DNA of 64,000 nt from an uncultured Candidatus Saccharibacteria bacterium (GCA_964368135.1 CAYIZI010000002.1:16241-80240), one strand, 5' to 3'. Positions 3,864 through 30,249 are shown, numbered from the stretch's first letter. The notes: generated by a model from the letters alone, not told the origin. Numbers and translations: made by a program.

Positions 3864-3904
3864 AAACCCTCCTGGTTTTTTTGATATCATTAATCTTATG
3901 AAAA

Positions 3905-3933: not shown

Positions 3934-3944
3934 AGCTCACCTCT

Positions 3945-10396: not shown

Positions 10397-12643
10397 TCAG
10401 CGAAGTGAGTTTATGAAATCCTGGGCTTCTTTGGTGTAGTTCGGGTCAATTTTTGCCGCCATTTGAGCGGCTTGAATGGCCTTACTTATCTCCCCTGTTT
10501 CTTTATAGGCCACTGCTAAAGAAGCAAAGTATTGAGGATTTTTTGGATTAAGTTTGACTAAAGCCTCATAAATTTCGGCGACTTTTTGGAAATTTCGCAT
10601 TCTCAAATAAATTTCGGCCACTCTCAAAGCATCTACTTCATTACTTTTATACTCGTAGCCGGACTTCTCAATGATCTCAGCGCCTTTCTGAAGATCGCCA
10701 GCCTGGGCGGTGGTAATGCCAAGATACCAGTGAGAAAGCTTGACCTCTGGATTTAACTCAACCACTTTTTCAAACCATTCAATCGCTGTTTTGTAGTCTT
10801 TTTTATTAAGGTAAACCTGAGCAACTTCATAATAAGTTCGGACAAAGGTTGGTGAAATTTCAAGAGCTTTAAGGCTGTTTTCTAAAGCCAGGTCATTAAA
10901 AGAAGAATTGGGGTCATTTTTGCCAAGGACAATGTAAGCCCGGCTGATATAAAGGTAAGGCAGATAATCCTGTGGTGATTCTTCAACATTTTTTTGGACA
11001 TTTTGGACGGCCACTAATAATCTTTCTGCTGTTTTTTGATCCACGCCAGTTTTTGAGGTAAGTTCCAGAATGTATTGGGCATAGCGGTGGCGGATTTCAT
11101 ACTTTCCAAAAGTGTCGTAGCTCATTGCTTTTTTGAATTTTTCAAAAGCCAAATCATGGTTGCCGCTCCAGGAAGCGATAATTGCTCTGGTGGTAGCATA
11201 GTTGGCTTTGGCTGGCACGACTTCAAAGAAATAAATTGAGAAAACTGCGATAATGACCAAGACCATGCCTGCGAAATTAGCCATTAAGTCTCTTTTTGGC
11301 TGAAGATTTTGAAGCTGCTGGTTTAAACTTTCTACCCTTAGCTGATTAATTAATCCAAGGATGATGAAAAACATTATAAAGTTGGCCGAGGTATCAAAAA
11401 TAAAGGAATTGTGAATCATATAGGCGACCAAGGTGGCAATCAAGCCGGCCTTTAATATTTTTTCTTCAGGATTTGAGTTCAGCCGTCTTAAATCTTGAAA
11501 GGCCCGATAGTAAATCAAAAGATAAGATAAAAAGCCGACCAAGCCCATAGTGAAAAGAACTTCAAGAAATTGATTGTGAGCCCGGTCAAATAAAGTTTCA
11601 GAACCTATTCCCCTAAAGAACTTGGGATTAAAGTGTTTTGAAAAAGGAATATTAAACATTTCCGGGCCCCAGCCCAAAAATATGGTTTTTAATGAATCGT
11701 TCCAGCCATTAAAACCAGCCTGCCAAGCCCAGGCTCGGGTCTGAACCGTATAGGCCGTAGGTGAAATGTCTGAATAGCGGGCCAAGTATTGATTCTCTCT
11801 CACAAAATCAGCCTTGCGCAGAGAGTACAAAGTTCCGGCAACAATAATAACCAGGATTGAAAAATAGATGGTATATCTTTTAACTTTAGGCGACCCAAAA
11901 CCAGCCGAGTATAAAAAACCAAATAAGATTACGCCGACAACCACGCCAAGCACCGAACCCCTGACTCCGGTCAGTAAAATCGCCAAAGCATCTATCAGAA
12001 AAACTGAACCGTAGAAAAATTTTTGGTTGTAAGAATTGCCGGGCTTAAAAAAGAGCATCAAAGCCAAAAAGGCATTAATTATAATGTAACCGGCAAAAAG
12101 AGCCGGGTTGCCAATGGTCCCGAAAATTTTTGCCCGGCCGCCAGAACCAATCACCCAGCTTAAATCAGTTTTTTGCAAAAACCCGTAAAAGGCCGAAAGC
12201 AAACTGACAAATAAAGATAGTTTAATAAAAGTAAGCCATTCTTCTTTTTTCCTTAAAACTCCAGTGGCAATAGCGAAGAAACCCCAGAAGTGCAGAAAAC
12301 TCAACCAGCCGCCCATTCGCTCTAAACTGCCAAAAAAGCTCTGATAAGTATTGGTGCTGGTAAAAGTGACCAAACCAAAAGCGGCTGTGAAAATCGTTAT
12401 CGCCCAAAAAAGAGGCGTTCGGGGAGGCGTAAATCTATAACCGTATCTGATTAACAAAATTATGTAAAAAACCGCCAGAATCTCAACCAAGGAACGAAAA
12501 ACAATAATCTTGCCAAAGTGAAAGGGCGAGATATACTGACTGAAAATAATTAGAGGGATAAAAGCAACAAAATAAATTCCATATTTCAGGAATTTTAGCA
12601 GGGCCGGCACCGCTGTTCTGGTATTGCTTTTTTGGTTTGACAT
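10397..12643 (-). CDS. O-antigen ligase (Wzy_C) family membrane protein fused to C-terminal TPR repeats
   Basis: About 12 TM helices with a Wzy_C-like loop (LTGVRGSVLGVVVG). The C-terminal ~300 aa form TPR-like repeats (AIEWFEKVVELNPEVKLSHWYLG...). Confidence 0.7.
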   Translation of the reverse strand: MSNQKSNTRTAVPALLKFLKYGIYFVAFIPLIIFSQYISPFHFGKIIVFRSLVEILAVFYIILLIRYGYRFTPPRTPLFWAITIFTAAFGLVTFTSTNTYQSFFGSLERMGGWLSFLHFWGFFAIATGVLRKKEEWLTFIKLSLFVSLLSAFYGFLQKTDLSWVIGSGGRAKIFGTIGNPALFAGYIIINAFLALMLFFKPGNSYNQKFFYGSVFLIDALAILLTGVRGSVLGVVVGVILFGFLYSAGFGSPKVKRYTIYFSILVIIVAGTLYSLRKADFVRENQYLARYSDISPTAYTVQTRAWAWQAGFNGWNDSLKTIFLGWGPEMFNIPFSKHFNPKFFRGIGSETLFDRAHNQFLEVLFTMGLVGFLSYLLIYYRAFQDLRRLNSNPEEKILKAGLIATLVAYMIHNSFIFDTSANFIMFFIILGLINQLRVESLNQQLQNLQPKRDLMANFAGMVLVIIAVFSIYFFEVVPAKANYATTRAIIASWSGNHDLAFEKFKKAMSYDTFGKYEIRHRYAQYILELTSKTGVDQKTAERLLVAVQNVQKNVEESPQDYLPYLYISRAYIVLGKNDPNSSFNDLALENSLKALEISPTFVRTYYEVAQVYLNKKDYKTAIEWFEKVVELNPEVKLSHWYLGITTAQAGDLQKGAEIIEKSGYEYKSNEVDALRVAEIYLRMRNFQKVAEIYEALVKLNPKNPQYFASLAVAYKETGEISKAIQAAQMAAKIDPNYTKEAQDFINSLR

Positions 12644-14353: not shown

Positions 14354-15382
14354 TTAAGCCAAGTCCCGTTTCTTTTTCCTAAGTTTTTCTCTTATCGGGA
14401 TTTCGGAATCAAGAACTGTTTTCACGGCATTGCCAAAAGCTAATTCCATCTCTCTAACTTCTCTGATAAGCTCGGCGAGCTCGTGCGGCTCAAGACTGGC
14501 GGCCTGGTCAGTGCCAAACATATTTTTATCCAAAGTAATATGCCGTTCGATTAAATGAGCGCCGATGGTAGCTGCAGCCAACGATGGCGCAATTCCTTTT
14601 TCATGGCCGCTATATCCTACCGGCATTCCGGGAAATTCCCGCCTTAACTTATCAATCATTTTCAGATTAAGCTCTTCTTCTTTGGCCGGGTAAGTTGAAA
14701 CAGTATGTAAAAGAATCAAATTATCAGTGCCTAAAATTCTGACTGCATGTTTAATTTCATCCATTGTGCTCATGCCGGTAGATAAAACAACTGGCCGACC
14801 CTTTTCTTTTATTTTTTCTAATAACTCATTATGGGTAAGAGAGGCGGAAGCAACTTTATAGCAAGGGAGGTTAAACCCTTCCAGAAAATCAACGCTCTCT
14901 AAATCCCAAGGCGAAGCAAACCAAAAGATTCCTTTAGTATTGCAGTAGCGGTCAATCTCTTTGTACTCGTCTTTTGTAAATTCCAAAGCCCACTTCAAAT
15001 CGCCGTTGGTTGAATCTTTAAAATCAGATTTTTTAAGACGCTCAACCGACTCTTTCGGTAGTACTCCCCTTTTGACGGCGTTTTCCAAAACCGCTCTGTC
15101 AACCTGCCGCGGCTTAGCCAATTCCTCGGCTGAATAAACCGCCGGTACCGTTCGTTTTTGAAACTTTACGGCCTGGGCTCCGGCTTCAACCGCCGCATCA
15201 ATCAGTTTCTTGGCAATCTCCAAACTGCCGTTATGATTTATCCCGATTTCAGCCACAAAAAAACAAGGCTGTTTTTTACCTACAGCAATATTGCCAATAT
15301 GGATATCGTGAGTATCTAAAGATGAATTACCAACTATAGTCCTGGCAAATCTTGCTATTGGAGAAAAAAATGCTTTAAACAT
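14354..15382 (-). CDS. N-acylneuraminate-9-phosphate/nonulosonic acid synthase family (NeuB/PseI/LegI-like)
   Basis: NeuB TIM-barrel motif FFVAEIGINHNGSLEIAKKLIDAAVEAGAQAVKFQ; length 342 aa, consistent with a C-terminal SAF domain. Confidence 0.75.
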   Translation of the reverse strand: MFKAFFSPIARFARTIVGNSSLDTHDIHIGNIAVGKKQPCFFVAEIGINHNGSLEIAKKLIDAAVEAGAQAVKFQKRTVPAVYSAEELAKPRQVDRAVLENAVKRGVLPKESVERLKKSDFKDSTNGDLKWALEFTKDEYKEIDRYCNTKGIFWFASPWDLESVDFLEGFNLPCYKVASASLTHNELLEKIKEKGRPVVLSTGMSTMDEIKHAVRILGTDNLILLHTVSTYPAKEEELNLKMIDKLRREFPGMPVGYSGHEKGIAPSLAAATIGAHLIERHITLDKNMFGTDQAASLEPHELAELIREVREMELAFGNAVKTVLDSEIPIREKLRKKKRDLA

Positions 15383-15457: not shown

Positions 15458-16345
15458 ATGAAAGAAAATTTTAGAATTGGCTTCATCTGCATCGGTCCAG
15501 AAAGAAGTGGGACAACCTGGCTTTATCAATGTTTAAAGGAGCATCCTGAAATCTGCGTTTCCGAGCCAAAAGAAGTCAACTTTTTTAATTCCACTCAAAG
15601 TTTCTGGCGGAAAGATCTTATCGGCAAAAGCAATTACGAGAAAGGTTTGGATTGGTACAAAAAACATTTCAATCATTGTGGACCTGGCAAAAAAATTATC
15701 GGAGAATTTACCCCGATTTACCTACATTCTCCAGAGGTCCCGGAAAGAATCCACAAACATTTTCCGGATACGAGATTAATTTTAATTTTAAGAAATCCTA
15801 TTGAACGTCTTTACTCACACTATATGTACACCAAACTAAAAGGATTTTATGAATTGCCGTCTTTTGAAGAAGTTATTGAAAAAGAAAGAGGTTTTGTTGA
15901 AGAAAGCTTATACAATAAACATCTCCAAAATTATCTAAAGTACTTCCCGCGAGAACGTCTTTTGATAATGATTTATGAAGATATAGAAAAAAATCCCGGG
16001 GCTTTTGTTAAAGAAGTGTTTAGATTTTTAGAGATAGACGAAAACTTTGTACCGCCATCAGTAAATAAAACCATCAACCCAGCCGGAACAGTAATGGTAA
16101 GAAATAAAATCTTATCTATAAAAGATTTCGTTAAAAAAATCCCAGGCGGGAAACTTATAATTCAGCTTTTCAAAAAAACTTCTTTTTATAAAAAATTAGT
16201 TGATTCGTTAGCCACCAAAACCGGCACGGTCAAAGCCGACTACGGCAAAATCAACCCAGAAACAAAAAAACGGCTCGCCGAATTTTACAAAAAAGATATT
16301 GAAAACTTAGAAAAATTCCTTGGCCGAGATTTAAGTTGGAAATGA
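15458..16345 (+). CDS. sulfotransferase family protein
   Basis: Has the PAPS 5'-phosphosulfate-binding motif at the N-terminus (IGPERSGTTWLYQCL) and a 3'-phosphate-binding region (LILRNPIERLYSHY). Confidence 0.7.
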   Translation: MKENFRIGFICIGPERSGTTWLYQCLKEHPEICVSEPKEVNFFNSTQSFWRKDLIGKSNYEKGLDWYKKHFNHCGPGKKIIGEFTPIYLHSPEVPERIHKHFPDTRLILILRNPIERLYSHYMYTKLKGFYELPSFEEVIEKERGFVEESLYNKHLQNYLKYFPRERLLIMIYEDIEKNPGAFVKEVFRFLEIDENFVPPSVNKTINPAGTVMVRNKILSIKDFVKKIPGGKLIIQLFKKTSFYKKLVDSLATKTGTVKADYGKINPETKKRLAEFYKKDIENLEKFLGRDLSWK

Positions 16346-16355
16346 TATTCTAAAA

Positions 16356-16395
16356 GTTAAAAAAATAAAACGGGCTCGTCAAGCGACGAGCCCGT
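16356..16395 (-). terminator. rho-independent terminator downstream of the cupin gene (possibly bidirectional)
   Basis: Perfect 11-bp stem ACGGGCTCGTC/GACGAGCCCGT with loop AAGC (16370-16395), followed on the minus strand by TTTTATTTTTTT. Confidence 0.75.
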
Positions 16396-16407
16396 TCGCA
16401 ACCAAGA

Positions 16408-16869
16408 TCAGGTTTTGACCTCGATCCCCTCCAGATACTCCAGCCGGACTTTGCCTTCCGGCAGAGCCACCTTCACCACCATCAGATGACAAAGGTCAGG
16501 AGTAAAGTGCTGATGGGCCTGGCCGGCCGGGATGTGCAGCCAGTCACCCTCGTAAAGAACTACCTCCTTGCCGCCTTCGATGCTGTTAGCAAGGAAAGTC
16601 AGACCGTCTTTTGTCCAGGGATCCACGAGTCGGCCGCCCAGAACAAAACGAACGCTCCCCTCCATACAGAAGAACACGTCGTCCTCGTGGAGATGGACTT
16701 CGGCCGGACGATGCTCCACGTGGAGATTCCGGAGGAATCGAACCGGAAATCCTTCCTCGTACAGCTTGGCCGACCCTTCCAGTACATGACTCCCCTTTTT
16801 CTCGGGTTCCCCGTAGAATTCCCTTACCACACGTCCAAACACATGTCTGACTGGCCTCAACTCGCTCAT
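16408..16869 (-). CDS. cupin domain protein
   Basis: 153 aa. Cupin beta-barrel motifs (HxH...E, LHIPAGQAHQ). GC-rich. Confidence 0.6.
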   Translation of the reverse strand: MSELRPVRHVFGRVVREFYGEPEKKGSHVLEGSAKLYEEGFPVRFLRNLHVEHRPAEVHLHEDDVFFCMEGSVRFVLGGRLVDPWTKDGLTFLANSIEGGKEVVLYEGDWLHIPAGQAHQHFTPDLCHLMVVKVALPEGKVRLEYLEGIEVKT

Positions 16870-16885
16870 TGCGTCCTCCTTGGAC

Positions 16886-17962
16886 CTAAACCGCCCTGAA
16901 TACGAAATAGAAAGCCTGGGCCTGTGTCAGTAGATTCTTTTCTTCTTCAATCAAAGTATCTACCAGTTCAGCTTCGGCCTCCTCAATGATCTTCATCTTC
17001 TGTACCAACGGTAAATCTACCGTCGCCAAGTTGATCGGAACGATAATCGGGTAGAAGTCAACCGACCTTACAAGGGACGGCTCTTCAACCACAACTGTCC
17101 TCTCAAGATCAAACCCGGCTTGGGTGGCTAAATCCGGCATCTCGCTGACCCTGAACATTTTCGCATCCTTTGGAGCATCTCTTTTGATTGAGTGCCTCTC
17201 CATAAGAATCCTGTTTAGAATCGAATTCAGCTTGACGAAAACAGGATTATTATTAGAGCCGGATTTATTGAAATGCTCTTCCCGAGAAGGGTCAGTTTCT
17301 AAGGCAGTCACCTGGCGCGGTTCCATCACAACCAGAACGCCGCCAGTCTGTAGAAGGCTCCTTGCCTTCGACAGCACCTTCACGATGCAGCCGTCGGTTT
17401 CGGGCTTAAGCCCATCTTCTTCAAGCTTCTTCTTGAGTTGGTTGATTGGCCAATGAAGGACATTGTTGGCCACAGCCACATCAAAAAGAGTATCTGAAGA
17501 AAAAGACATCAGGGGTGAAGTCATTATCCGCAGCTTCAACGACTCCCAGAAGCTGTTCTGGCGAAACCCCCGCCGGAAAAATTTTAGGTATTCGACGGTT
17601 CTTTCAAACCGACGGCCCAAAACTTCTTTGGCCCCTTTCTGAACCAGCCATTCCTCCACGTCACCGCCTTCCAGAAGCAAAAACCCCATCATTTCGGTCA
17701 TTGCCCTGGAATTATCAATGGCGGTTATTGAGGCCGGGCAAAACCCAGAAATGGCAAAAGTAGAGGTACCATAACCGCAGCCAATATCCAGAACATCCTT
17801 GCCTCTTAAGCCGCCACTGGCAGTTTCGGCCAGAAGGGCTGAATTCTGGGATTGACGCAGATATGAACCACGAACCCAGCCTTCGACAGAATAAATGGCT
17901 GGGAACAAACCCTCAAAAAGATCGCCCTTGGGGTCGTAAGCATGGATAGGTCCTTCACTCAT
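16886..17962 (-). CDS. class I SAM-dependent methyltransferase
   Basis: Motif I VLDIGCGYGTSTF. GC-rich, in a possible operon with the cupin gene. Confidence 0.65.
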   Translation of the reverse strand: MSEGPIHAYDPKGDLFEGLFPAIYSVEGWVRGSYLRQSQNSALLAETASGGLRGKDVLDIGCGYGTSTFAISGFCPASITAIDNSRAMTEMMGFLLLEGGDVEEWLVQKGAKEVLGRRFERTVEYLKFFRRGFRQNSFWESLKLRIMTSPLMSFSSDTLFDVAVANNVLHWPINQLKKKLEEDGLKPETDGCIVKVLSKARSLLQTGGVLVVMEPRQVTALETDPSREEHFNKSGSNNNPVFVKLNSILNRILMERHSIKRDAPKDAKMFRVSEMPDLATQAGFDLERTVVVEEPSLVRSVDFYPIIVPINLATVDLPLVQKMKIIEEAEAELVDTLIEEEKNLLTQAQAFYFVFRAV

Positions 17963-18032
17963 TTCTCACCTTCCTTGAAGTTGATTTTCAATTTTTAAAC
18001 AGGATTTAACGGACGATACCCTGGACTTCAAG

Positions 18033-18061
18033 ACTATAAAAGAATGAAGTACTTTTGTCAA
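18033..18061 (-). promoter_or_regulatory. near-consensus sigma-70 promoter (TTGACA-17nt-TATAGT) for the methyltransferase-cupin operon
   Basis: Minus strand reads TTGACAaaagtacttcattctttTATAGT. It lies about 70 nt upstream of the MTase ATG, which is preceded by GGAAGGTGAG. Confidence 0.55.
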
Positions 18062-18879
18062 GATTTTGGATTGGCAAAAACATTATCAGTAAATTTAACC
18101 AACACTTTATAAAATCCTGGCGGGTTATCAATAAATGGGAAATGATGACTTTGGGGTATGGCCTTAACTAAACATCTGCTCTTTTTTAATTTCTCTATAA
18201 CCGATAGCCAGTTTTTATTTTCTGCACCATAAATAAAGATTTTGGGCAAATTTATTTTTAAAAAATTTTTAAGAAGATGTCCGTTCTTACAAATTTTGGC
18301 GTGAGAAACGCTAAAATCAAAATATGATTTTATTGAAACACCGTCCAATTGTCTGCCATATCTTTTAAATCCTCGGTTTTTTGATTTTTTCAAATCTTCA
18401 ACCATATCCGGGAAAAGTCTATTTCTAAAAATATCGAGGCCGGCTTTTTTAATCTTTCTTGACCACCGGGCATTTTGAGAAACCAAACTTCCTTCAACAT
18501 TCACGAAGCCGGCAACTTTTTTCGGATATTTTTCGGCATATAAAAGAGTAGCTATGCCGCCGATGCTGTGGCCGACTAAAATGAATTTTTTAAATGAAAA
18601 CTTTTTAGCGGTGTGCTCAATGATTTTTACTAAATCATTTATTCCTAAACTTTTTCTGGATGGATAAAGAGAATTACCAACTCCCGGCCAATCAAAAGCA
18701 AAAATTTCGTAATCTTTAAGTCCTTTAACTTTTACAGCATCGATAAAATCTTCTTTTGAACAGCCTAAACCATGAATAAAAATTATTGTCCCTCTTTTAC
18801 CGGGTCGATAAAAATACCTGATTTTAATTTTCGAATTTTTTAATTTAATCGGAAATTTTGAAAGATTAATATTTTTCAT
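18058..18879 (-). CDS. alpha/beta hydrolase fold protein
   Basis: HGLG oxyanion motif and GHSIGG nucleophile elbow (GxSxG). AT-rich, like the host genome. Confidence 0.7.
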   Translation of the reverse strand: MKNINLSKFPIKLKNSKIKIRYFYRPGKRGTIIFIHGLGCSKEDFIDAVKVKGLKDYEIFAFDWPGVGNSLYPSRKSLGINDLVKIIEHTAKKFSFKKFILVGHSIGGIATLLYAEKYPKKVAGFVNVEGSLVSQNARWSRKIKKAGLDIFRNRLFPDMVEDLKKSKNRGFKRYGRQLDGVSIKSYFDFSVSHAKICKNGHLLKNFLKINLPKIFIYGAENKNWLSVIEKLKKSRCLVKAIPQSHHFPFIDNPPGFYKVLVKFTDNVFANPKS

Positions 18880-18906
18880 AAAAATTTATTTAAATAAGGC
18901 GACAGT

Positions 18907-18942
18907 GAGCCTCCAAAGATTTTATAAAATCTTTGGAGGCTC
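18907..18942. repeat. perfect 36-bp palindrome (hairpin stem about 16 bp): terminator/attenuator or operator
   Basis: GAGCCTCCAAAGATTTTA|TAAAATCTTTGGAGGCTC, lying between the P-loop gene end (18952) and the hydrolase start (18879). Confidence 0.6.
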
Positions 18943-18951
18943 AAGTAAAAC

Positions 18952-19686
18952 TCAAGAACTTCGGACTTGTTCGAGCATCGCCACTGCCTCGGCAACGCGT
19001 CTTTTCAGTTCTTCTTCGCTGATCGGCATCTCGCCTCTCAGAAAAGAAAAAACTTCCTCGCGCTGATGAACCAGTGATTCTTGTGATTCGTCTGAAGTGT
19101 TAAGGTACAAAGGAATGTAACCAGCCGGCGGAATCTCAATCTGTCGGGCGCCACGAAGGAAACCGTCGAAGTCGAACACGCTGGCGTTGGTGATATTGCC
19201 GACGGTTTCCAATTCCCGCTGACGATAAGCAATCCGCCGCCTGACCGCCTCCAAATCGCAGTAGAAGTAGATGCATCTGAAATGTACTGTGATCGGCAAT
19301 TCCGGAATCGGTTTCCCGTCCCTTTCTGCTTCCTCACGCTCAATGGTCTGAAGGTACCAGTTGGCGCTTTCAAGCATCTCAACGAACGGCACCTGGTGAG
19401 CTTTACGAGTCAGCATCACCATTTCCAGAAACACGGCTTGAGGCCTCTCTACTATCAGCTTAGTCTTCACCTCGAATCGAGTCGCCTCGTTCTTGAAGAC
19501 GTGCTCGATCTTAACGATGTGAACGTCACTTCTCGTCGGCCAGAAGCGCTGACGGACATCGTCCATAGACACAAAAACAGCATCCTTGTACTCGGGTAAA
19601 CTCATTACCCAATTCCGGAAGAATGACTTGCCGCTGAAAACCAGACCGGAGAAAACACTGACCAAAATCACCTGATTATTACCCAT
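18952..19686 (-). CDS. P-loop NTPase/kinase-like hypothetical protein
   Basis: Walker A motif GLVFSGKS near the N-terminus. GC is intermediate to high. No further family recognised. Confidence 0.4.
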   Translation of the reverse strand: MGNNQVILVSVFSGLVFSGKSFFRNWVMSLPEYKDAVFVSMDDVRQRFWPTRSDVHIVKIEHVFKNEATRFEVKTKLIVERPQAVFLEMVMLTRKAHQVPFVEMLESANWYLQTIEREEAERDGKPIPELPITVHFRCIYFYCDLEAVRRRIAYRQRELETVGNITNASVFDFDGFLRGARQIEIPPAGYIPLYLNTSDESQESLVHQREEVFSFLRGEMPISEEELKRRVAEAVAMLEQVRSS

Positions 19687-19713
19687 ACCATCCTCCTTTT
19701 TAATGAACCGTTG

Positions 19714-19743
19714 TTGACTTTTTCAAGCTAATACCTTATATAA
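19714..19743 (+). promoter_or_regulatory. putative sigma-70 promoter (TTGACT-17nt-TATATAAT) for the KdsC-like phosphatase gene
   Basis: TTGACT at 19714-19719 and TATATAAT at 19736-19743; the ATG is at 19757. Confidence 0.45.
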
Positions 19744-19756
19744 TTAAATCAATAAT

Positions 19757-20281
19757 ATGTCAAACAGCCGTATAAAAATTCCTAAAAAACTCTTACTAAA
19801 ACTAAAAAGACTTAAACTTGTCGGTTTTGATTTCGATGGCATTTTCACTGATGGAAAAGTTATATTGAGCGAAGATGGAATTGAACATGTGATATGTAGC
19901 CGCAAAGACGGACTTGGTATTAATGAACTGCAACGTCTCGGCTTGAAATTGACAGTTATTTCAAAAGAACCAAATAAAATAGTTGCGACGCGAAGTAAAA
20001 AACTTAAAATCGAGTATGCTCACGGGATAAACGATAAATTAACTCTCTTTAAAAAAATACTTAAAGAAAAAAAGATAAGCCCTTCAGAGGCGGCTTTTAT
20101 GGGTGATGATTGGAATGATTTGGAGTGTATGAATTATGCCGGTGTGGCTTTTACTGTAGCTGACGCAAACCCTCTATGTAAAAGGGTCGCTGATTATACA
20201 ACTAGCCGAAAGGGAGGTGATCACGCCATAAGAGAAATATGCGATTTAATTGTTTTAGCAAAAGAAAAACGGTATAAATAA
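19757..20281 (+). CDS. HAD-IIIA phosphatase, KdsC/nonulosonate-9-phosphate phosphatase family
   Basis: FDFDGIFTDG motif I and GDDWNDLECM motif IV; 174 aa, typical of KdsC-type phosphatases. Confidence 0.7.
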   Translation: MSNSRIKIPKKLLLKLKRLKLVGFDFDGIFTDGKVILSEDGIEHVICSRKDGLGINELQRLGLKLTVISKEPNKIVATRSKKLKIEYAHGINDKLTLFKKILKEKKISPSEAAFMGDDWNDLECMNYAGVAFTVADANPLCKRVADYTTSRKGGDHAIREICDLIVLAKEKRYK

Positions 20282-20282
20282 T

Positions 20283-21167
20283 TTAGCCAAACAAACTCGT
20301 AATCACTATTCCAGCAAGCATTATACTGGTGGCAAGTAATCTCTCTTTTATATTTTTTTCCTGTAAAAGCCGACCGCTTAAAATCACGGCCCAAAATGAC
20401 CAGAGCCGCTTAACACTGGCGGCATAGGCGGCCAAAGTGTAGTTAAGTGCTTGGGCAGTCAGAAAAAAACCGGCAATATTGACCACAACCATTAAAAAAA
20501 TAATGCGCCGATTTACTTTTAAATGTTTAAAAATCGAAAAATCTTTTTTCTGAACAGTATAAATAGCCAAACTGACTAACCCGACAATAATCAGATAAAT
20601 TGCAGAAAAAAACAAAGCTGATGAAGTTACTACCGCTTTTTTATCAAAAGGAAAAGAAAAAGCAAAAAATAAGGCACCTAATATCCCTAAAAGTATGCCT
20701 TTCTGTTCAAAAATATTGGCTAAACTAATTTTTTTGCCCTCCGGATTAACTAAAAACCAAAGGCCGGCTATAGTAGTTAAAACGCCAATCATGCCCCAGA
20801 AAGATGCTTTCTCGCCCAAAATAAAAAAACCGGTTATTAAAACAAGCGGCGGGGTCAACAGTCTGGTTGGAGAAATTATAGAAGCATCATCCTGACTAAA
20901 GGCTTTGTAGTAAATCCAGTGGCCGAATAAGCCCAAGACAGAAGTCATAAAAAAAGCCAACCAAAAGCCTTGTTTAATCTCCGGGAAATCGAAAAAGAAA
21001 ATAAACAAAATAGAAATAAAAATACCGGAAAGCAAAAAATTAAAAGCAAGAAGGAGTCTCTCGTTTATCTTGCCGTCTCTCAGGGCATACCTGATTACTA
21101 CATCCAAAAGCCCGGCGAAAAAAGTGCCGGGAATCATAAAGAGTAGAAATAATTTAATGTTCTCCAT
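20283..21167 (-). CDS. EamA/DMT-superfamily transporter
   Basis: About 10 TM helices in two 5-TM halves; 294 aa. Confidence 0.6.
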   Translation of the reverse strand: MENIKLFLLFMIPGTFFAGLLDVVIRYALRDGKINERLLLAFNFLLSGIFISILFIFFFDFPEIKQGFWLAFFMTSVLGLFGHWIYYKAFSQDDASIISPTRLLTPPLVLITGFFILGEKASFWGMIGVLTTIAGLWFLVNPEGKKISLANIFEQKGILLGILGALFFAFSFPFDKKAVVTSSALFFSAIYLIIVGLVSLAIYTVQKKDFSIFKHLKVNRRIIFLMVVVNIAGFFLTAQALNYTLAAYAASVKRLWSFWAVILSGRLLQEKNIKERLLATSIMLAGIVITSLFG

Positions 21168-21730
21168 TATTTCTTTTTAGAACTGCTTTTCGCCTGAATA
21201 ATCAAATCACAAACTTCTCTTACTGCTCCGTCACCGCCTTTGGCTTTAGTCACGTAATCAGCCACTTTTTTTGCTTCTTTGGCGCCATCACCCACGCAGA
21301 CCGAAAGGCCGACAAATTTCATTATTTCAATGTCGCCGGTGCTGTCGCCGACAAAACAAATATCCTTTAAGCTTGCCTTGGGATGATTTTCTTTTAAATA
21401 CTCTTTGAGACCAGCAACTTTGTCTTTATTCTGGACTAAAGGAACGCCGAGCTTCCAGGCCCGGGCCTGGACATAACCGCTTCTCTGGGTAGTTAAAATA
21501 AAAACCGAAACCCCGACATTTTCTTTCCGCACTAAATCTATCCCCTGACCGTCTTTATGAGAATATCTGGCCGATTCAAAAACATAAACAAAATCTCGAC
21601 CGGTATGCTGGCTCGCCGCTTCTTTGGTCATAATAACACCGGTATCAAGATATAAAGGCGTCAGCACCCCGTCATTATCAAGAGCCAGGACTTTTACTTT
21701 CTTGAATTTGTCTAAAAGTTTTTTAGTCAT
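21167..21730 (-). CDS. HAD-IIIA phosphatase, KdsC family (second copy)
   Basis: LDNDGVLT motif I and GDSTGDIEIM motif IV; 187 aa. Confidence 0.65.
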   Translation of the reverse strand: MTKKLLDKFKKVKVLALDNDGVLTPLYLDTGVIMTKEAASQHTGRDFVYVFESARYSHKDGQGIDLVRKENVGVSVFILTTQRSGYVQARAWKLGVPLVQNKDKVAGLKEYLKENHPKASLKDICFVGDSTGDIEIMKFVGLSVCVGDGAKEAKKVADYVTKAKGGDGAVREVCDLIIQAKSSSKKK

Positions 21731-21850
21731 ATTAGAGTCATATTAGATTTAAATAACAATAATTCTTTGAATCGTCAATTGTTGTAATTTTTCAAAAAAT
21801 GATAGATAATATAATCCTGAACTTTTCGCACCTTACCAAGGAGGTTAGAC

Positions 21851-23620
21851 ATGGCGAAGCTAAACGTAATCCAGCCCCATATCCACCCTTCAGAGGTGGT
21901 AAGGGGCATAACGGCAAGAGATCTTGAGGGTCTCAACGTTGTTTTCATCAATATGCCGCTTCGGGAAACGGCGCTACCAAACACCACACCCGAGGGTCCG
22001 CTATTAATGGCGACAAACCTGATTCGGAACTATGGGGTTAGTGCTTCAGTAATTGACCTCAACGCTTACCGGATTAAAGACGAGCTGGCTCAAAAACGCG
22101 GACTCCCGCGAGGCCGCCACCTGACCGAAGAAGAGGCCTTTGGTAAAATCCAACGCCATTTCCTCAAATTTGGCGAACCAGACCTTGTTTGCCTTTCAGG
22201 AATGATCACCACTCTGAAGTGGCAAAAAGCAGTGGCGGGAATGGTCCGCCGGCTGGTACCTAACACTATGCTCGTTTCTGGCGGGGGCCTGGCTACTGAA
22301 TTAAAAGTGGGACTGTTTAACTACACCCCTGAACTCGATGGAGTGGCCCACTCCGAAGGAGACGATGTCATCGTCAAAATCTGCTACGACGCGGCGGTTA
22401 TTCGGCGCCACGGCCGGCAACATGCTCTCAACTCGGGCAAGCTCGAACCCTATTTACTGCAGGACGGCTCCGGCCGTCTGATGTACGAAGGCGATCGGCC
22501 CGATGATTTGGACCGATTCCCATGGGTTGACCTTGAGCTTTTGCGCGAAGATGTTGACGGGGTCAAAATCCTTGAGCAATATCTTCAAGCCGAAGCTTGG
22601 GGACTTAGCGCAAACAACAGCTCGGCGGCACCGTTTGTAACCGCGCCGAAAACCACTTCGGTTTCTTCCCGCGGCTGTCCCTATGGCTGCAAATACTGCT
22701 ATCGGGGCGCCCAAGGAGAACGCAAGTGGCACGTGAGGTCGGCCCGCCATCTGGTTGAGGAAATGAAAGAACACATGGCAAAGTACGGCATAGCTTTCAA
22801 GAGCTGGCCGGACGACAACTTTGCGGTGACATTCAAAAGGATTAAGGAACTCCGGGATATCATTGTCGCAGAAGGCATCAAGATTCCCTGGGGAACCCAC
22901 ACTCGCCTCGACGAAGCCGGTGGCTTTGTTCCTAACTCACGTCAACCCCATCACGAGAGAAACTTCTTTACCGACTATATCTTTGAGGATCCGCTCCGGA
23001 TCAAGCTAATGGCTGAAGCCAACTGTAAGTACGTCGGCTTTGGACCAGAAAGCGCTCACCCAGACACCCTTGAAGAACTCGGCAAAGGAGGCTTCACTCT
23101 CAAGGCAGGTTTGATCCCAGTTGGAGTCAACGGCCATACCTACTACTTCCCCAAAGCCATGATCTATGGAACCAAGCACACCATGGAAGCGGGGATTCAC
23201 GCCAACATGACCTGGATCAAGTTTAATCCGGGAGAAACGCTGGAACGGCTCAAGCAGACAGTTGCCTTCATCAAATGGCAGATTGATTACTACGCAACCT
23301 TCGGAATACCGGAAGAAGCGGTGAATAAAAACATGTTCACTCTTACCTGGTATCCTGGGACGGAACTAATCAATCACCCTAAGGTGAGGTTAGAACTTTC
23401 GCGCGTCTTCGGTCTGAATTTCCAAAGGATCAACGGCAAGTGGGACCCTGTCTGCGATGAGGCGTTCTACCGGTATTGCCTGGAACTAGACGACGCCACC
23501 AAGCTCCTTCACGGCCCGGACGGCGAACCGCTGAACTTCAGCGAAATGCCAAACGACTTGGCCCTACAAATCAACGAGTATGTCAGCTCCGGCCAAACTC
23601 TTCGTATCCTGGACATATAA
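21851..23620 (+). CDS. B12-binding domain radical SAM protein (class B radical SAM-like)
   Basis: N-terminal cobalamin-binding-like Rossmann segment, then the radical SAM CxxxCxxC motif (CPYGCKYC). 589 aa. About 52-55% GC in about 33% GC surroundings. Strong AAGGAGG Shine-Dalgarno. Confidence 0.7.
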   Translation: MAKLNVIQPHIHPSEVVRGITARDLEGLNVVFINMPLRETALPNTTPEGPLLMATNLIRNYGVSASVIDLNAYRIKDELAQKRGLPRGRHLTEEEAFGKIQRHFLKFGEPDLVCLSGMITTLKWQKAVAGMVRRLVPNTMLVSGGGLATELKVGLFNYTPELDGVAHSEGDDVIVKICYDAAVIRRHGRQHALNSGKLEPYLLQDGSGRLMYEGDRPDDLDRFPWVDLELLREDVDGVKILEQYLQAEAWGLSANNSSAAPFVTAPKTTSVSSRGCPYGCKYCYRGAQGERKWHVRSARHLVEEMKEHMAKYGIAFKSWPDDNFAVTFKRIKELRDIIVAEGIKIPWGTHTRLDEAGGFVPNSRQPHHERNFFTDYIFEDPLRIKLMAEANCKYVGFGPESAHPDTLEELGKGGFTLKAGLIPVGVNGHTYYFPKAMIYGTKHTMEAGIHANMTWIKFNPGETLERLKQTVAFIKWQIDYYATFGIPEEAVNKNMFTLTWYPGTELINHPKVRLELSRVFGLNFQRINGKWDPVCDEAFYRYCLELDDATKLLHGPDGEPLNFSEMPNDLALQINEYVSSGQTLRILDI

Positions 23621-23644
23621 GTAGTGCGGACTCTCGTACGCCAG

Positions 23645-23692
23645 GAAAAAAGCCCGACAGGTTCATCTTGTCGGGCTTCGCTCTTTATTTTT
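23645..23692. terminator. bidirectional rho-independent terminator between the convergent radical SAM and cytidylyltransferase genes
   Basis: AAAAAA-GCCCGACAGG-ttcatc-TTGTCGGGC-TTcgcTCTTTATTTTT: a hairpin with an A-tract upstream and a T-tract downstream. Confidence 0.75.
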
Positions 23693-24398
23693 CGCCCCCT
23701 CTCCTCTTCAAAATCTTGCCAATCAGCCAAAACTGGTATTCGCTGTCAACTTGGAGAGAGTCTTCCTCGGTCATCTGGACAATCGCCATTTTCCCGCCCC
23801 AGCGATGGCCGATTTTATGAAATAAATCTGTCTTAGTTATATAAAAAGCTCCGTTCTCATGATAAACTTTTGGTAAATCCTGCCTGACCACTCTTTTCAT
23901 CACCGGAACTTCCGGTTCAAAAGCAACCTCTCTGCCTGACTCATCAACCTTCGGCCGCCATTTCCACTCATAGGTTTCAGGCAAAAAAGCAGTGATGCAA
24001 GAATCAAAACCTTGATTCTTTACCCTATTCACGCACTCCTTTATAATTTCTGATTTTAAAAGCGGCGAAGTCGGCTGAATGCAGGAAACGAAATCAGGCA
24101 CGTAATTTTCTTTTTCTCTTAAATAATCCAAAGCATGTTTAATTACCGGCTCAAGAGTAATCTTATCGCCAGCCAGTTCTTTTGGCCGGTCAACCACCTC
24201 GGCCCCGAATTTCTTAGCCACTCCCGCAATCTCGGCATCGTCAGTTGAAACAATCACCCTATCCACTACACCAGAATTCAAAACCGCTTCAATAGTATGA
24301 GCAACTAAGGGCTTCTCGTTTAACAATCTTATATTTTTTCGGGGCACTCCTTTGGAACCGCCCCGCGCCGGAATTATAGTAATAATTTTTGGCTTCAT
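23685..24398 (-). CDS. acylneuraminate/nonulosonate cytidylyltransferase family (CMP-NeuAc/CMP-Kdo synthetase-like)
   Basis: N-terminal IIPARGGSKGVPRKN motif; 237 aa. Confidence 0.75.
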   Translation of the reverse strand: MKPKIITIIPARGGSKGVPRKNIRLLNEKPLVAHTIEAVLNSGVVDRVIVSTDDAEIAGVAKKFGAEVVDRPKELAGDKITLEPVIKHALDYLREKENYVPDFVSCIQPTSPLLKSEIIKECVNRVKNQGFDSCITAFLPETYEWKWRPKVDESGREVAFEPEVPVMKRVVRQDLPKVYHENGAFYITKTDLFHKIGHRWGGKMAIVQMTEEDSLQVDSEYQFWLIGKILKRRGGEK

Positions 24399-28220: not shown

Positions 28221-29306
28221 TTAAAAAGGGCCTTTAAAATCTTTATCTGGCACATCAAGCGGTGTGATTCTATTTTTTTCTTCCTCTTTAATCAAAACTT
28301 CTAACTTTTTCCTGTTTCCGCCGACCATCTTAACAACTTTTCTGGCAATATCTATATACCTTGGATAATAATACTTTGCTAAGGCCGGCGTTGAGGGAGT
28401 CGGCAAATCAGGAGAAGTGATTCTTTGAGGATTGGTTAAAAGTTTAACCTTTTGATTTTCAGAAACAGCCGCAATAATCTCTGCGGCGGCGCCAAAACTT
28501 TTATAGCCAAGGTCAGCAACCAGTAACCTTTTTGTTTTAGATACAGAATCAAAAATAGTTTGTTCGTCTAATGGTTTTAGAGTTCTTACATCTATAATTT
28601 CCGGATTTATTCCCATTTTCTTTAATAAATTTGCGGCTTTAATGGATTCAATCGTCATATGGGAAGTTGAAACGATAGTGATCGCCTCCCCTTTTTTAAC
28701 GATGCTGGCTTTGCCAATAGGAACTTTATAATAACCGCTTGGAACTTGCCCAAAAGTATCATGAAGCCAGCGATGGTCAATATAAATAACTGGGTTATTG
28801 TCTTCAATCGCCGAAACCATTAAACCTTTGGCATCAGCCGGGGTTGACGGCATCACTACTTTCAAACCCGGAATATGGGCATAAACTGCCTGGAGGTTTT
28901 GAGAATGTTGAGCCCCCTGTCCCCAACCCATACCAATAGTCACCTTAATGACCAAAGGAACTGACTGCCTGCCGCCAAACATATAATGCCACTTAGCCGC
29001 ATTATTAATTACTTGTTCTAACGCAAGTAAGCTAAAATCAACTCTTTGATGAGTCAAAACGGGCCGCATCCCGCTAATCGCCGCTCCAATACAGACGCCG
29101 GTTATGCCATTTTCAGAAACCGGCATATCCATTACTCTATTTCCCCCATATTTTTTTTGAAGCCCCACTGTAGCACCAAAAATCCCTTTCGGATCAGGAA
29201 CACCTAAACCTATCACAAAAACCGATCTATCTTTTTTTAAAGATAGATCTAATGCCTCATTAATGGCTTGAACATAGGTTATATTATGCGCCGTAGAGCC
29301 CTTCAT
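28221..29306 (-). CDS. TPP-dependent 2-oxoacid dehydrogenase E1 beta subunit / transketolase C-terminal-like
   Basis: Transketolase pyrimidine-binding and C-terminal domains (MDMPVSENGITGVCIGAAISGMRP). The start is moved to the internal ATG (MKGST...). Confidence 0.6.
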   Translation of the reverse strand: MKGSTAHNITYVQAINEALDLSLKKDRSVFVIGLGVPDPKGIFGATVGLQKKYGGNRVMDMPVSENGITGVCIGAAISGMRPVLTHQRVDFSLLALEQVINNAAKWHYMFGGRQSVPLVIKVTIGMGWGQGAQHSQNLQAVYAHIPGLKVVMPSTPADAKGLMVSAIEDNNPVIYIDHRWLHDTFGQVPSGYYKVPIGKASIVKKGEAITIVSTSHMTIESIKAANLLKKMGINPEIIDVRTLKPLDEQTIFDSVSKTKRLLVADLGYKSFGAAAEIIAAVSENQKVKLLTNPQRITSPDLPTPSTPALAKYYYPRYIDIARKVVKMVGGNRKKLEVLIKEEEKNRITPLDVPDKDFKGPF

Positions 29307-30249
29307 ATAAATATTCCTTTGGTGGGAATTTGCTTTTTTTAGCAAAATCAAACGCCTCTTTTATCTTTTCTTCTACATCTTTTTTGATTTTATCCAACTC
29401 CTTTTGAGAAACTATCTTATTTTTAAGAAGGTGACCCTCAAAATGCCTAACCGGATCTTTTTTCTTCCATGCCTCCACTTCTTTCTTATCCCTATATCCT
29501 AAATGATCATCATAAAACGGACCGCAATGTTCACGCCACCGATAAGTTAAAAACTCCAAAAATACCGGGCCTTCCCCTTTTCTTATTTTCTTAACCGCCT
29601 CGGAAACAGTTTTATAAATATCTAAAACATTATTGCCGTCGTGCTGGGAAGCGGTTATGCCATGCCCTTCAACTAATTTATAAATGGGGCGATTTGGCTG
29701 TCTTTCTGATAAAGGGGTGTAAACCGAGAAAAAATTATTTTCGCAGACAAATAAAATCGGCAATTTTTTAAAAGCGGCGAAGTTTAAACTTTCATGAAAA
29801 ACTCCTTCTTCAGCCGTTCCATCGCCTATAAAAGCAACTGTAATTTTATTTTTACCTTTTAATTTATTAGCAAAAGCGGCGCCAACGGCGATGGGCATAC
29901 TATTTCCGACAATTGGAGTAGCTCCGCCAAAACCAGCCTCAAGATCAATTAAATGCTGGGAACCGCCTTTCCCTTTGGAACAACCTGTCTCTTTTCCGTA
30001 AATTTCGGCAATCATTTTATCTAAGTCTCCTCCTTTAGCCAGATAATGAGCATGGCAACGGTGAGTGCTGTAAACAATGTCATCTTTTTTTAAATTTTCG
30101 CAAACCCCGACTGCCACAGCTTCCTGACCAATAGATAAATGAACCGGACACCGCATTTCCTGATCCGGATATCTTTTAGCAATCTCTTCGTCAGTCAACC
30201 TGATTAAGAGAAGTTTTTGGTATAAAGATAAAAGTAGTTTTAAAGACAT
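29284..30249 (-). CDS. TPP-dependent dehydrogenase E1 alpha subunit-like
   Basis: E1-alpha signatures: CPVHLSIGQEAVAVG and the TPP-binding GDGTAEEG...N motif. Confidence 0.6.
   Translation of the reverse strand: MSLKLLLSLYQKLLLIRLTDEEIAKRYPDQEMRCPVHLSIGQEAVAVGVCENLKKDDIVYSTHRCHAHYLAKGGDLDKMIAEIYGKETGCSKGKGGSQHLIDLEAGFGGATPIVGNSMPIAVGAAFANKLKGKNKITVAFIGDGTAEEGVFHESLNFAAFKKLPILFVCENNFFSVYTPLSERQPNRPIYKLVEGHGITASQHDGNNVLDIYKTVSEAVKKIRKGEGPVFLEFLTYRWREHCGPFYDDHLGYRDKKEVEAWKKKDPVRHFEGHLLKNKIVSQKELDKIKKDVEEKIKEAFDFAKKSKFPPKEYLYEGLYGA

Follow-up and report, generated by a model that had tools for sequence, protein, structure and literature searches.

A putative sugar-acid kinase and tailoring module with an old GC mosaic in a glycan gene cluster of a groundwater Patescibacteria bacterium

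Do the GC-rich genes of a groundwater bacterium, with their strong transcription signals and an adjoining perfect palindrome, constitute a recently acquired island, or do they belong to the pathway around them? The genes lie in a 64,000-nucleotide stretch (the window) of a contig from a Patescibacteria (CPR) bacterium of Hainich groundwater, and one large glycan gene cluster fills most of the window. A reading made without database searches (the sequence-only reading) had proposed a recently acquired accessory cassette for small-molecule or sugar tailoring, or for a stress or defence function. The four open reading frames it described, encoding a cupin, a SAM methyltransferase, an alpha/beta hydrolase and a P-loop protein with the motif GLVFSGKS, were all recovered, and they form part of a conserved block of eight genes (16368-23678) embedded in the glycan-biosynthesis cluster (Table 1). 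Comparison with relatives indicates that the GC-rich genes are an old, conserved component of a cell-surface sugar pathway of these ultra-small groundwater bacteria.

Table 1. Coordinates of the genes and signals discussed, numbered from the first nucleotide of the window
Feature	Coordinates	Strand	Remarks
NeuB-family PEP-condensing ulosonic-acid synthase	14354-15382	-	Pfam NeuB 7.8e-78; pathway context
Intrinsic terminator of the methyltransferase-cupin unit	16368-16397	-	12-13 bp G+C-rich stem, 4-nt loop, U-tract
Cupin ORF	16408-16869	-	153 aa, GC 56.1%
SAM methyltransferase	16886-17962	-	358 aa, GC 48.7%
Predicted sigma-70-type promoter TTGACA-17-TATAGT	18033-18061	-	would serve the methyltransferase-cupin operon
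Alpha/beta hydrolase	18058-18879	-	273 aa, GC 31.8%
Perfect palindrome, 38 bp	18906-18943	.	3' hairpin, P-loop gene
P-loop protein	18952-19686	-	244 aa, GC 50.3%
KdsC/YrbI-family sugar-acid phosphate phosphatase	19757-20281	+	NCBIfam TIGR01670; KdsC 2.7e-37
EamA-family transporter	20283-21167	-	within the eight-gene block; Pfam EamA 3.4e-28
KdsC-like HAD phosphatase with insertion	21167-21730	-	P0053 fuses this type to the kinase
B12-binding radical SAM enzyme	21851-23620	+	589 aa, GC 52.6%; Pfam Radical_SAM and weak B12-binding match
Terminator of the radical SAM gene	23650-23678	+	12 pairs; right-hand end of the eight-gene block common to L012
CMP-ulosonic-acid synthetase, PseF/KdsB-like	23685-24398	-	NCBIfam PseF 3.4e-44, Pfam CTP_transf_3; pathway context
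Other GC-rich patches	2903-4496; 21851-23620, 35272-37353		ThyX/Dcd; B12 radical SAM genes

The four genes are organized in three transcription units, namely the P-loop gene with its 3' hairpin, the hydrolase gene, and the methyltransferase and cupin genes between a promoter and a terminator. The last two are assigned to one operon because the 16-nt gap between them contains AAGGAGG; the hydrolase gene lacks a Shine-Dalgarno sequence. The hairpin described as an 11-bp perfect stem with a T-tract beyond the cupin gene is present at 16370-16395 (ACGGGCTCGTC-AAGC-GACGAGCCCGT) and extends to 12-13 pairs (16368-16397), eight of them G-C, with TTTTATTTTTTT directly after it on the minus strand. It stands 11 nt beyond the stop codon of the cupin gene, has the tail UUUAUUUUUUU, and displays every canonical feature of a rho-independent terminator. 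Its position is conserved, with two compensatory pair changes in the related locus L012 (GGGCTCGTC/GACGAGCCC vs GGGTTCGCC/GGCGAACCC) and a hairpin of different sequence at that place in L009. The putative promoter, read from 18061 to 18033 on the minus strand with its -35 hexamer overlapping the hydrolase stop codon, is the best match within the 12 kb scanned and has the consensus hexamers and 17-nt spacer of sigma-70 promoters. Taken alone, however, the match is at chance level and not significant, with three 11/12 matches observed in the window and 2.96 expected from composition-preserving shuffles. What supports the near-consensus promoter of the sequence-only reading is instead its conservation in relatives, in which TTGACA, a 17-nt spacer and a TATAxT-type -10 element occupy the same place in L012 (TATATT), L009 (TATACT) and L027 (TATATT).

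The palindrome, reported as 36 bp (18907-18942), is present and has a true length of 38 bp. It starts 8 nt past the P-loop stop codon, ends 26 nt short of the hydrolase start codon, and folds into a 17-bp stem (-28.3 kcal/mol, z = -7.9); in the 64 kb, no other perfect-stem hairpin is as long as this one or that on the cupin side. Its tail is CUGUCGCCUUAUUU, and a U-rich stretch begins 9 nt after the stem. Compared with rho-independent terminators, the stem is unusually long and A+T-centred, and terminator function is not assured because no U-tract lies directly 3' of it. The palindrome does not mark the boundary of a foreign segment, as had been suggested, since relatives carry an ordinary terminator at that position: L026, whose P-loop protein is 83% identical, L012 and L009 all have GGCGGAAT..ATTCCGCC followed by a T-tract, and a strong hairpin follows the P-loop gene in every relative. 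For the available sequence a REP-like or MITE-type repeat was rejected, as the palindrome is single-copy in the window (full palindrome or half-site, up to three mismatches) and no copies were found in JGI metagenomes or IMG/VR. Compared with the relatives, it is a lineage-specific replacement of the ancestral canonical terminator, and this 3' hairpin of the P-loop gene is the sole feature new to the lineage.

The base composition of the region is uneven. The GC content of 16408-17962 is 51.0%, compared with 39.1% for the whole window, so that the value above 55% claimed for this interval holds for the cupin gene by itself and fails for the interval overall and for the methyltransferase gene. 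At least five GC-rich patches occur in the window, including the cupin/methyltransferase/P-loop region. Compositional analysis bore out that the GC-rich genes of this region are atypical for the host, with GC of 49-56% vs 39% for the window and GC3 of 0.54-0.64 vs 0.26-0.41. The signature spans whole genes, G3 and C3 both being raised, Arg being preferred to Lys and FYMINK residues being fewer, an amino-acid usage typical of GC-richer genomes. The same alternation, with an AT-rich hydrolase gene between GC-rich genes, recurs in L012, L009, L027 and L021. The hydrolase gene is AT-rich at every orthologous locus, including L009 and L012, where GC3 is 0.26-0.27 and the protein is 65-71% identical to that of the window. 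Between the window and L012, dS is 0.97-1.26 in seven of the eight genes of the block, whether these are rich in GC or in AT, and lower (0.60) in HAD174; amino-acid identities of the two gene classes co-vary across relatives. Because the pattern is shared with relatives and dS is uniform at about 1, these comparisons place the mosaic before the split of the lineages and argue against recent acquisition.

Gene order leads to a similar view. The P-loop, hydrolase, methyltransferase and cupin genes are colinear in L012 and L009 and permuted in L027 (hydrolase-methyltransferase-cupin-P-loop). L021 (cupin-hydrolase-methyltransferase) and L024 (cupin-CE4 deacetylase-methyltransferase) lack the kinase gene, and L026 has part of the module. 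The four genes are kept together in at least four CPR genomes besides that of the window. A foreign island or cassette, acquired recently and with the palindrome at its edge, would be consistent with the concerted shift in GC, GC3 and amino-acid usage, with the strong signals that each GC-rich unit has of its own, and with families that are rare and patchily distributed. The rarity does justify the term accessory, the genes falling into 27, 13 (methyltransferase) and only 11 (cupin) clusters among 5.8 billion proteins. Against an island stand the shared mosaic, the dS of about 1 in both gene classes, the co-varying identities and the conserved terminator position that the palindrome occupies. 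Nor did we find a tRNA in the 64 kb, mobility genes or an integrase, meaningful flanking repeats, or phage or plasmid matches. The relatives that carry the module have the same genes with the same GC mosaic (L012, L009, L027, L021, partly L026), an outcome that the sequence-only reading had itself named as speaking against an island, and on these grounds the recent-island reading is already largely refuted and we regard it as improbable.

The P-loop protein is best read as a gluconate-kinase-like kinase of an uncharacterised family. Its Walker A motif, SGLVFSGKS, conforms to GxxxxGK[ST], the fold is of the kinase type with a lid, and D42/R45 and R150/R151 are invariant. Pfam AAA_33 scores 23.8 bits, below the 27-bit cut-off, which some relatives pass, and no sequence-level PDB match was obtained even with the family profile. 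In contrast to gluconate kinase (GntK) and AAA_33 proteins, to which it is only 12-14% identical, it carries a long additional helix (residues 95-122) as well as a helical extension at its C-terminus. The family is sharply delimited and tiny (89 representatives). An APS kinase (CysC) was rejected, as there is no APS_kinase Pfam match to the P-loop protein; a canonical PAPS synthase (ATP-sulfurylase/APS-kinase fusion) is encoded at 46085-47779, which makes such a role unnecessary.

The company kept by the kinase gene is informative. Among 17 distinct loci, a KdsC-like HAD gene is found in 14, NeuB nearby in 12, a B12 radical SAM gene beside the kinase gene in 11 and a CMP-synthetase gene in 10. 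All loci are sugar-biosynthesis clusters except the short L025, which has SDR and radical SAM neighbours only (16/17). In two of the loci (L002; L005-L008) the kinase gene sits in glycan clusters with NeuB and radical SAM genes absent within 10 kb, and in Saccharibacteria L018 it is followed by a NeuB-cupin operon. Protein P0053 is a fusion of the kinase to a KdsC-like HAD and is encoded next to a radical SAM gene; its C-terminal HAD domain and the product of 21167-21730 share 41% identity. In the window, the phosphatase at 19757-20281 (TIGR01670, 125 bits; cut-off 106.95) is divergent from the P-loop gene, a pair also found in L012 and L026, and the EamA transporter is 80-87% identical in L012, L027 and L010/L011. 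NCBIfam matches relate the radical SAM enzyme to B12-dependent radical SAM methyltransferases, though none of them reaches its cut-off. The NeuB homologue likewise matches NCBIfam NeuB and PseI below cut-off, and a SAF domain was not detected in it by Pfam. A SIS isomerase gene lies near the locus.

The remaining genes encode a methyltransferase, a hydrolase and a cupin. The methyltransferase is of class I and SAM-dependent, with an extra C-terminal domain (Pfam Methyltransf_23, 35.3 bits, above 27) and an invariant SAM motif, LDIGCGYGT. Its gene always adjoins those for the cupin and a hydrolase, the latter being alpha/beta in L012, L009, L027 and L021 and a CE4 deacetylase in L024. The window hydrolase is an alpha/beta-fold serine hydrolase with a GHSIGG nucleophile elbow (G-x-S-x-G; Pfam Abhydrolase_1, 70.5 bits, 2.3e-19), and its PDB relatives are esterases and lipases. 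The cupin is metal-binding, with conserved E57, H59, H61, D63/D64 and H119. Its similarity to DUF386 proteins is remote, many unrelated cupins scoring equally, and it has no Pfam DUF386 match. YhcH, a DUF386 member, is a Neu5Ac anomerase that opens the Neu5Ac ring (PMC8141875). In contrast to the metal cupins YhcH, YjgK and YiaL of DUF386, the window cupin is found in a biosynthetic rather than a catabolic context.

Animals make Neu5Ac with the kinase GNE followed by NANS, NANP and CMAS, Bacteroides make KDN with a KDN-9-P synthase and a KDN-9-P phosphatase, and the KDO route consists of KdsD, KdsA, KdsC and KdsB. The locus resembles these routes in combining a PEP-condensing NeuB-family synthase, KdsC-family HAD phosphatases and a CMP-activating enzyme with a kinase and a nearby SIS isomerase. 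It differs in that its kinase is a P-loop, gluconate-kinase-like protein and not a ROK kinase, in the recurrence of a B12 radical SAM partner, and in the NeuB homologue without a Pfam-detected SAF domain. We lean, with some reserve, towards reading the region as the kinase and tailoring part of an uncharacterised ulosonic-acid pathway, whose exact chemistry we infer. The P-loop protein would be a small-molecule kinase of the gluconate-kinase/AAA_33 fold that phosphorylates a sugar or sugar-acid intermediate, and would share its pathway with the KdsC-type phosphatases, the B12-dependent radical SAM enzyme (probably a C-methylase), the NeuB-like PEP-condensing synthase and the CMP-sugar synthetase. 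The route would pass through phosphorylated intermediates, in the manner of the Neu5Ac and KDN routes of animals and Bacteroides. An accessory tailoring trio acting on the same sugar acid may consist of the serine hydrolase, the methyltransferase and the metal cupin, with suggested roles in de-acylation, methylation, and ring-opening or isomerisation. Because the genes sit in a glycan/NeuB cluster in every genome that carries them, sugar tailoring is the best-fitting of the functions suggested earlier. A defence or stress role is without support, PADLOC returning a generic methyltransferase-domain match only.

Whether the trio belongs with the kinase can be questioned. The four genes might be neighbours rather than one functional unit, the kinase alone taking part in the core ulosonic-acid pathway while the other three proteins act on another sugar of the glycan or on a non-sugar small molecule. 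The separate transcription units and the hairpin that parts the kinase gene from the hydrolase gene would suit this arrangement, as would the fact that most loci (L002, L005, L010, L013, L016-L020) have the kinase gene but not the trio, the trio without the kinase gene in L021 and L024, and a methyltransferase homologue in a teichoic-acid-like context in L023. However, the four genes are still adjacent after the rearrangement that separates the window, L012 and L009 from L027, the trio always lies within a few genes of a KdsC-like HAD, CMP-synthetase, EamA or NeuB gene, and the cupin homologue of L018 is co-operonic with NeuB; we consider such independence unlikely. A nucleic-acid end-healing pair of the T4 Pnk type is a further alternative. 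P0053 has the P-loop kinase and HAD phosphatase architecture of T4 polynucleotide kinase-phosphatase, but its HAD domain is KdsC-type and its context is sugar biosynthesis, the setting of nearly all kinase loci. In the window the HAD partner is of the KdsC/YrbI type (19757-20281, above cut-off) rather than PNK3P, both a ligase and a Hen1 partner are absent, and gluconate-kinase-like structures give higher scores, which leaves this pairing very improbable. A zeta/PezT-like toxin kinase or other defence or stress factor, with the palindrome as its operator, is scarcely credible. The protein has no Pfam Zeta_toxin match, no small antitoxin gene adjoins, the kinase, the radical SAM protein, the cupin and the hydrolase all lack a PADLOC match, and the palindrome lies downstream and not upstream of the gene and is missing from all relatives.

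The kinase and tailoring module that we favour does not account for the persisting GC mosaic. More tentatively, we suggest that the locus combines a so far undescribed route by which CPR bacteria make a modified ulosonic acid with an actively maintained mosaic. If so, the kinase, KdsC-like phosphatase, B12 radical SAM enzyme and NeuB-like synthase without a Pfam-detected SAF domain would define the route, its product would be a modified, possibly C-methylated ulosonic acid made via phosphorylated intermediates, and the hydrolase, methyltransferase and cupin would be its dedicated tailoring trio. The composition would then be upheld by selection on composition itself, or by biased exchange among genes of a pool specific to each family, and would not be the fading trace of a transfer. 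As for the mosaic itself, GC3 of about 0.47-0.66 vs 0.25-0.43 in adjacent genes persists as the genes co-diverge to as little as 42-56% amino-acid identity.

The candidate kinase (the P-loop protein) and its neighbours probably form a rare, CPR-restricted variant of ulosonic-acid biosynthesis, made up of three uncharacterised protein families. A sequence-only reading had described cupin, methyltransferase, hydrolase and P-loop genes with a hairpin, a promoter and a palindrome, and this observation was largely right, as all of them were found. Its GC estimate for positions 16408-17962 (>55%) was too high; the measured value is 51.0%, and that of the whole window is 39.1%. GC-rich genes are dispersed across the window: ThyX, a Dcd-like gene, cupin, methyltransferase, the P-loop gene and two B12 radical SAM genes. 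Their composition is a whole-gene signature in which G3 and C3 are both raised, FYMINK residues are fewer and R/(R+K) is 0.5-0.7 versus 0.2-0.37. The ThyX and dCTP-deaminase-like genes are a GC-rich pair among AT-rich SecF/MsrB/SecA genes, outside the glycan genes, and the mosaic of GC-rich and AT-rich genes thus extends beyond the latter. The second B12-binding radical SAM gene (693 aa) is a single-gene GC-rich patch that adjoins a PfkB sugar kinase gene. Long antisense ORFs within the GC-rich genes probably arise because GC-rich sequence holds few stop codons; they are unlikely to be genes.

Features of the window, with base composition where measured (GC3 also for the homologous locus L012)
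Feature	Position	Strand	GC (%)	GC3, window	GC3, L012	Remark
ThyX	2903-3745		52	0.59
dCTP-deaminase-like	3945-4496		55	0.64
NeuB-like synthase	14354-15382
Sulfotransferase	15458-16345
Cupin hairpin	16370-16395	minus				extends to 16368-16397
Cupin	16408-16869	minus	56.1	0.65	0.58
Antisense ORFs	16486-16899; 16568-16789; 17124-17456; 19282-19599	plus
Class I SAM methyltransferase	16886-17962	minus	48.7	0.54	0.53
Candidate sigma-70-type promoter	18061..18033	minus				TTGACA-17-TATAGT; -35 overlaps hydrolase stop codon
Alpha/beta serine hydrolase	18058-18879	minus	31.8	0.26	0.26
Hydrolase upstream region	18880-18905
Palindrome	18906-18943
P-loop protein	18952-19686	minus	50.3	0.59	0.57	Walker A GLVFSGKS
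Divergent intergenic region	19687-19756
KdsC-like phosphatase (HAD)	19757-20281
EamA transporter	20283-21167
KdsC-like phosphatase (HAD)	21167-21730
B12 radical SAM	21851-23620			0.60	0.62
Transketolase-like	28221-29351
Internal palindrome	29224-29249					within transketolase-like gene
PfkB sugar kinase	34057-35133
Second B12 radical SAM	35272-37353		51.5
PAPS synthase	46085-47779

The genes and their GC mosaic are shared with relatives that carry the module, which largely refutes the recently acquired foreign cassette proposed from sequence alone. L012, from a related genome of the same well as the window (isolate H51-bin021_1), holds a colinear 8-gene block (radical SAM, HAD, EamA, HAD, P-loop, hydrolase, methyltransferase, cupin) whose per-gene GC pattern matches that of the window. 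The proteins of the two blocks are 71-91% identical, and dS is 0.97-1.26 in seven of the eight genes, both GC-rich and AT-rich, with HAD174 at 0.60. The like GC pattern and the similar dS over both gene classes indicate that the block was co-inherited together with its mosaic. A Zambryskibacteria contig (L009) has the gene order of the window and the mosaic at 65-75% identity. The mosaic is also present in L027, in the order hydrolase-methyltransferase-cupin-P-loop, and in L021, likewise from well H51, in the order cupin-hydrolase-methyltransferase at 42-56% identity. The hydrolase gene is AT-rich in all of these loci (GC 0.32-0.36), in contrast to a GC of 0.46-0.57 for the GC-rich P-loop, radical SAM, methyltransferase and cupin genes; among relatives with the module, this is the shared composition that the first interpretation had itself named as speaking against an island. 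ARAGORN predicted zero tRNAs in the window, searches for mobility genes and for phage or plasmid matches found none, and a search for repeats flanking the block gave only short A+T-rich chance matches. A recent foreign island is therefore rejected. For genome scans this is a caution, as atypical GC and clean signals mimicked a recent island and the relatives revealed an old, co-inherited mosaic. L012, L021/L022 and the window represent three distinct Patescibacteria populations in one well (H51), with the module at 42-91% protein identity; there is no recent exchange of the module between these co-resident populations. The methyltransferase orthologue of L009 has an in-frame TGA (2669-2671) and is hence called as 268-aa and 84-aa pieces, which could reflect a pseudogene, a sequencing error or recoding.

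An ancient origin of the GC-rich genes in a GC-richer background is plausible. Under a two-rate model with most synonymous changes W<->S, simple amelioration would be expected to have wiped out the GC signal at such divergence. Polarised changes at 4-fold sites in the GC-rich genes number 55 S>W versus 30 W>S, small counts that rely on a saturated outgroup (L009). The excess suggests a mild AT-ward drift, which fits slow amelioration or a higher gene-specific equilibrium alike. In Yanofskybacteria and in a distant subfamily (36-39% identity) the kinase gene is without GC enrichment. If the mosaic is actively maintained, it would call into question the common practice of interpreting GC anomalies by amelioration.

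The palindrome after the P-loop gene is perfect, as first described, and is 38 bp long rather than 36 bp. The P-loop stop codon lies 8 nt from one end of it and the hydrolase start codon 26 nt from the other. Its fold has an energy of -28.3 kcal/mol (z = -7.9), and it is, together with the cupin hairpin, one of the two longest perfect-stem hairpins of the 64 kb. Among the compared loci it occurs only in the window. L026 (the closest relative, protein 83% identical), L012 and L009 have an ordinary terminator, GGCGGAAT(loop)ATTCCGCC and a T-tract, after the P-loop gene, and L027 and the Saccharibacteria locus L018 have other strong hairpins there. In the window the palindrome is followed by a remnant (..GTCGCCTTATTT) that resembles the ancestral 3' arm and T-tract. 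The ordinary terminator of the relatives and this remnant indicate that the palindrome is a lineage-specific replacement of the P-loop gene terminator, of uncertain termination efficiency because no U-tract lies directly past the stem. No second copy was found in the window at <=3 mismatches, nor in JGI metagenomes and IMG/VR by an exact 30-mer search, which diverged copies would escape. A REP-like reading is not supported, the palindrome being single-copy across these three sources. Its origin by template switch or small insertion is speculation, and alignment with relatives favours neither.

The cupin hairpin is real, extends to 12-13 pairs and has its U-tract on the minus strand. It is kept in L012 with two compensatory base-pair changes, and L009 has a different hairpin in its place. 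The near-consensus promoter sequence is likewise present and kept in relatives, although its 11/12 match is no rarer than chance (3 in the window versus 2.96 expected from shuffles; not significant alone). L012, L009 and L027 each have a TTGACA -35, a 17-nt spacer and a TATAxT -10 where the hydrolase and methyltransferase genes meet, and promoter function is supported by this conservation despite saturated neutral divergence, not by the match itself. There are three transcription units: kinase; hydrolase; and methyltransferase with cupin. RNAalifold on four orthologous methyltransferase 5' UTRs gave zero consensus pairs for a leader or attenuator; small hairpins are visible by eye. The hydrolase gene is without a Shine-Dalgarno sequence in the window, L012, L009 and L026 and starts 26-45 nt past the upstream hairpin; from its sequence, the mRNA may be leaderless or have a very short leader. 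The 70-bp divergent region between the P-loop and KdsC phosphatase genes is near-identical in L012 and partly kept in L026, and holds a conserved candidate promoter (TTGACT..TATATAAT) directed at the phosphatase gene, from which a very short leader would result.

The contig that carries the P-loop gene is a 97,952-bp ENA record from the 0.1 um fraction of Hainich aquifer well H51. The sole Pfam match of the P-loop protein, AAA_33, is below the cut-off, NCBIfam gave zero matches for the kinase and the cupin, and the kinase-family profile matched nothing among PDB sequences even at E = 10. The protein belongs to a very small family with clear limits, which has 89 representatives (among 1.84 billion) and forms 27 clusters at 90% identity. 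Named homologues are from Patescibacteria (CPR) only, namely Zambryskibacteria, Wildermuthbacteria and Yanofskybacteria, with those of Saccharibacteria more distant. An APS kinase, an idea prompted by the neighbouring sulfotransferase, was dropped in view of the canonical PAPS synthase.

Kinase homologues were surveyed at 17 distinct loci, with a 10-kb radius for KdsC-like HAD genes. Such a gene was found in 14, mostly adjacent, and a NeuB homologue, a B12 radical SAM enzyme and a CMP-sugar synthetase in 12, 11 and 10 loci, respectively; the associations extend to Saccharibacteria at 36-39% identity. The methyltransferase gene invariably has a cupin and a hydrolase gene alongside. That the four genes are functionally unrelated neighbours is a less likely rival to a common pathway. 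A Pnk-like end-healing pair is a further rival, and a very unlikely one. In P0053 (433 aa; L025 2885-4186) the kinase is naturally fused to a KdsC-like HAD domain. The gene for this fusion directly follows a B12 radical SAM gene, and its HAD domain is 41% identical to the product of the second KdsC-like gene of the window. The product of the first (19757-20281) passes the KdsC/YrbI cut-off of NCBIfam. Also very unlikely is a role of the P-loop protein as a zeta-like toxin or in defence; a stress or defence role had been among the initial suggestions, but PADLOC returned only a generic methyltransferase-domain match, mad2, and the defence role was dropped. The initial guess of sugar tailoring is the best-supported function, its exact chemistry being conjectural.

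We propose that the kinase would add phosphate to a sugar or sugar-acid intermediate, which the radical SAM enzyme would then modify, probably by C-methylation. The NeuB-like enzyme would condense the intermediate with PEP, the KdsC-type phosphatases would take off the phosphate, and the product would be activated with CMP. Neu5Ac, KDN and KDO are made via phosphorylated routes, to which this scheme is parallel. We hold the general scheme to be slightly favoured, and any single step to be much less secure. The hydrolase, methyltransferase and cupin may tailor the same sugar acid. The class I methyltransferase has an extra C-terminal domain, and its SAM motif alone matches known structures; the hydrolase has a GHSIGG elbow and is similar to esterases and lipases. 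In L024 a CE4 deacetylase replaces the hydrolase, which suggests that the hydrolytic step is a de-acylation. A BioC/BioH-like 'methyl ester protecting group' role of methyltransferase and hydrolase is not claimed, its basis being weak generic NCBIfam matches.

The module lies in a single large glycan cluster that spans from ~10.4 kb to the right-hand window end. It encodes a priming Bac_transf sugar transferase, several Wzy_C proteins and glycosyltransferases, the NeuB-like synthase, two KdsC-like phosphatases, a PseF/KdsB-like CMP-synthetase, heptose-type SIS, PfkB and cytidylyltransferase proteins, TPP enzymes, a DegT aminotransferase and several methyltransferases. The sulfotransferase and the PAPS synthase, a canonical bifunctional ATP-sulfurylase/APS-kinase fusion, imply that this CPR bacterium makes a sulfated glycan. 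CPR bacteria rely on host-cell contact, and to our knowledge almost nothing is known of their surface glycans. Together, the new kinase family, the KdsC-type phosphatases, the B12 radical SAM enzyme and the NeuB-like synthase suggest that a sialic-acid-like sugar is produced by unfamiliar chemistry, and the conserved module offers concrete enzymes for testing. In L018 the kinase gene is followed by a terminator and a NeuB-cupin operon. The NeuB-like synthase (14354-15382; its L018 counterpart is at 10827-11846) matches Pfam in two stretches, neither Pfam match covering a SAF domain. In a 55%-GC Saccharibacteria genome, the homologues of NeuB and of the CMP-synthetase are 66% and 71% identical to those of the window, a much closer likeness than the 36-47% of the kinase, radical SAM and cupin homologues, which suggests that parts of the cluster were exchanged between CPR classes. 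Rfam at gathering thresholds gave zero matches in the entire window. The transketolase-like gene contains a perfect palindrome with an 11-bp stem, GATCTATCTTT-AAAA-AAAGATAGATC.
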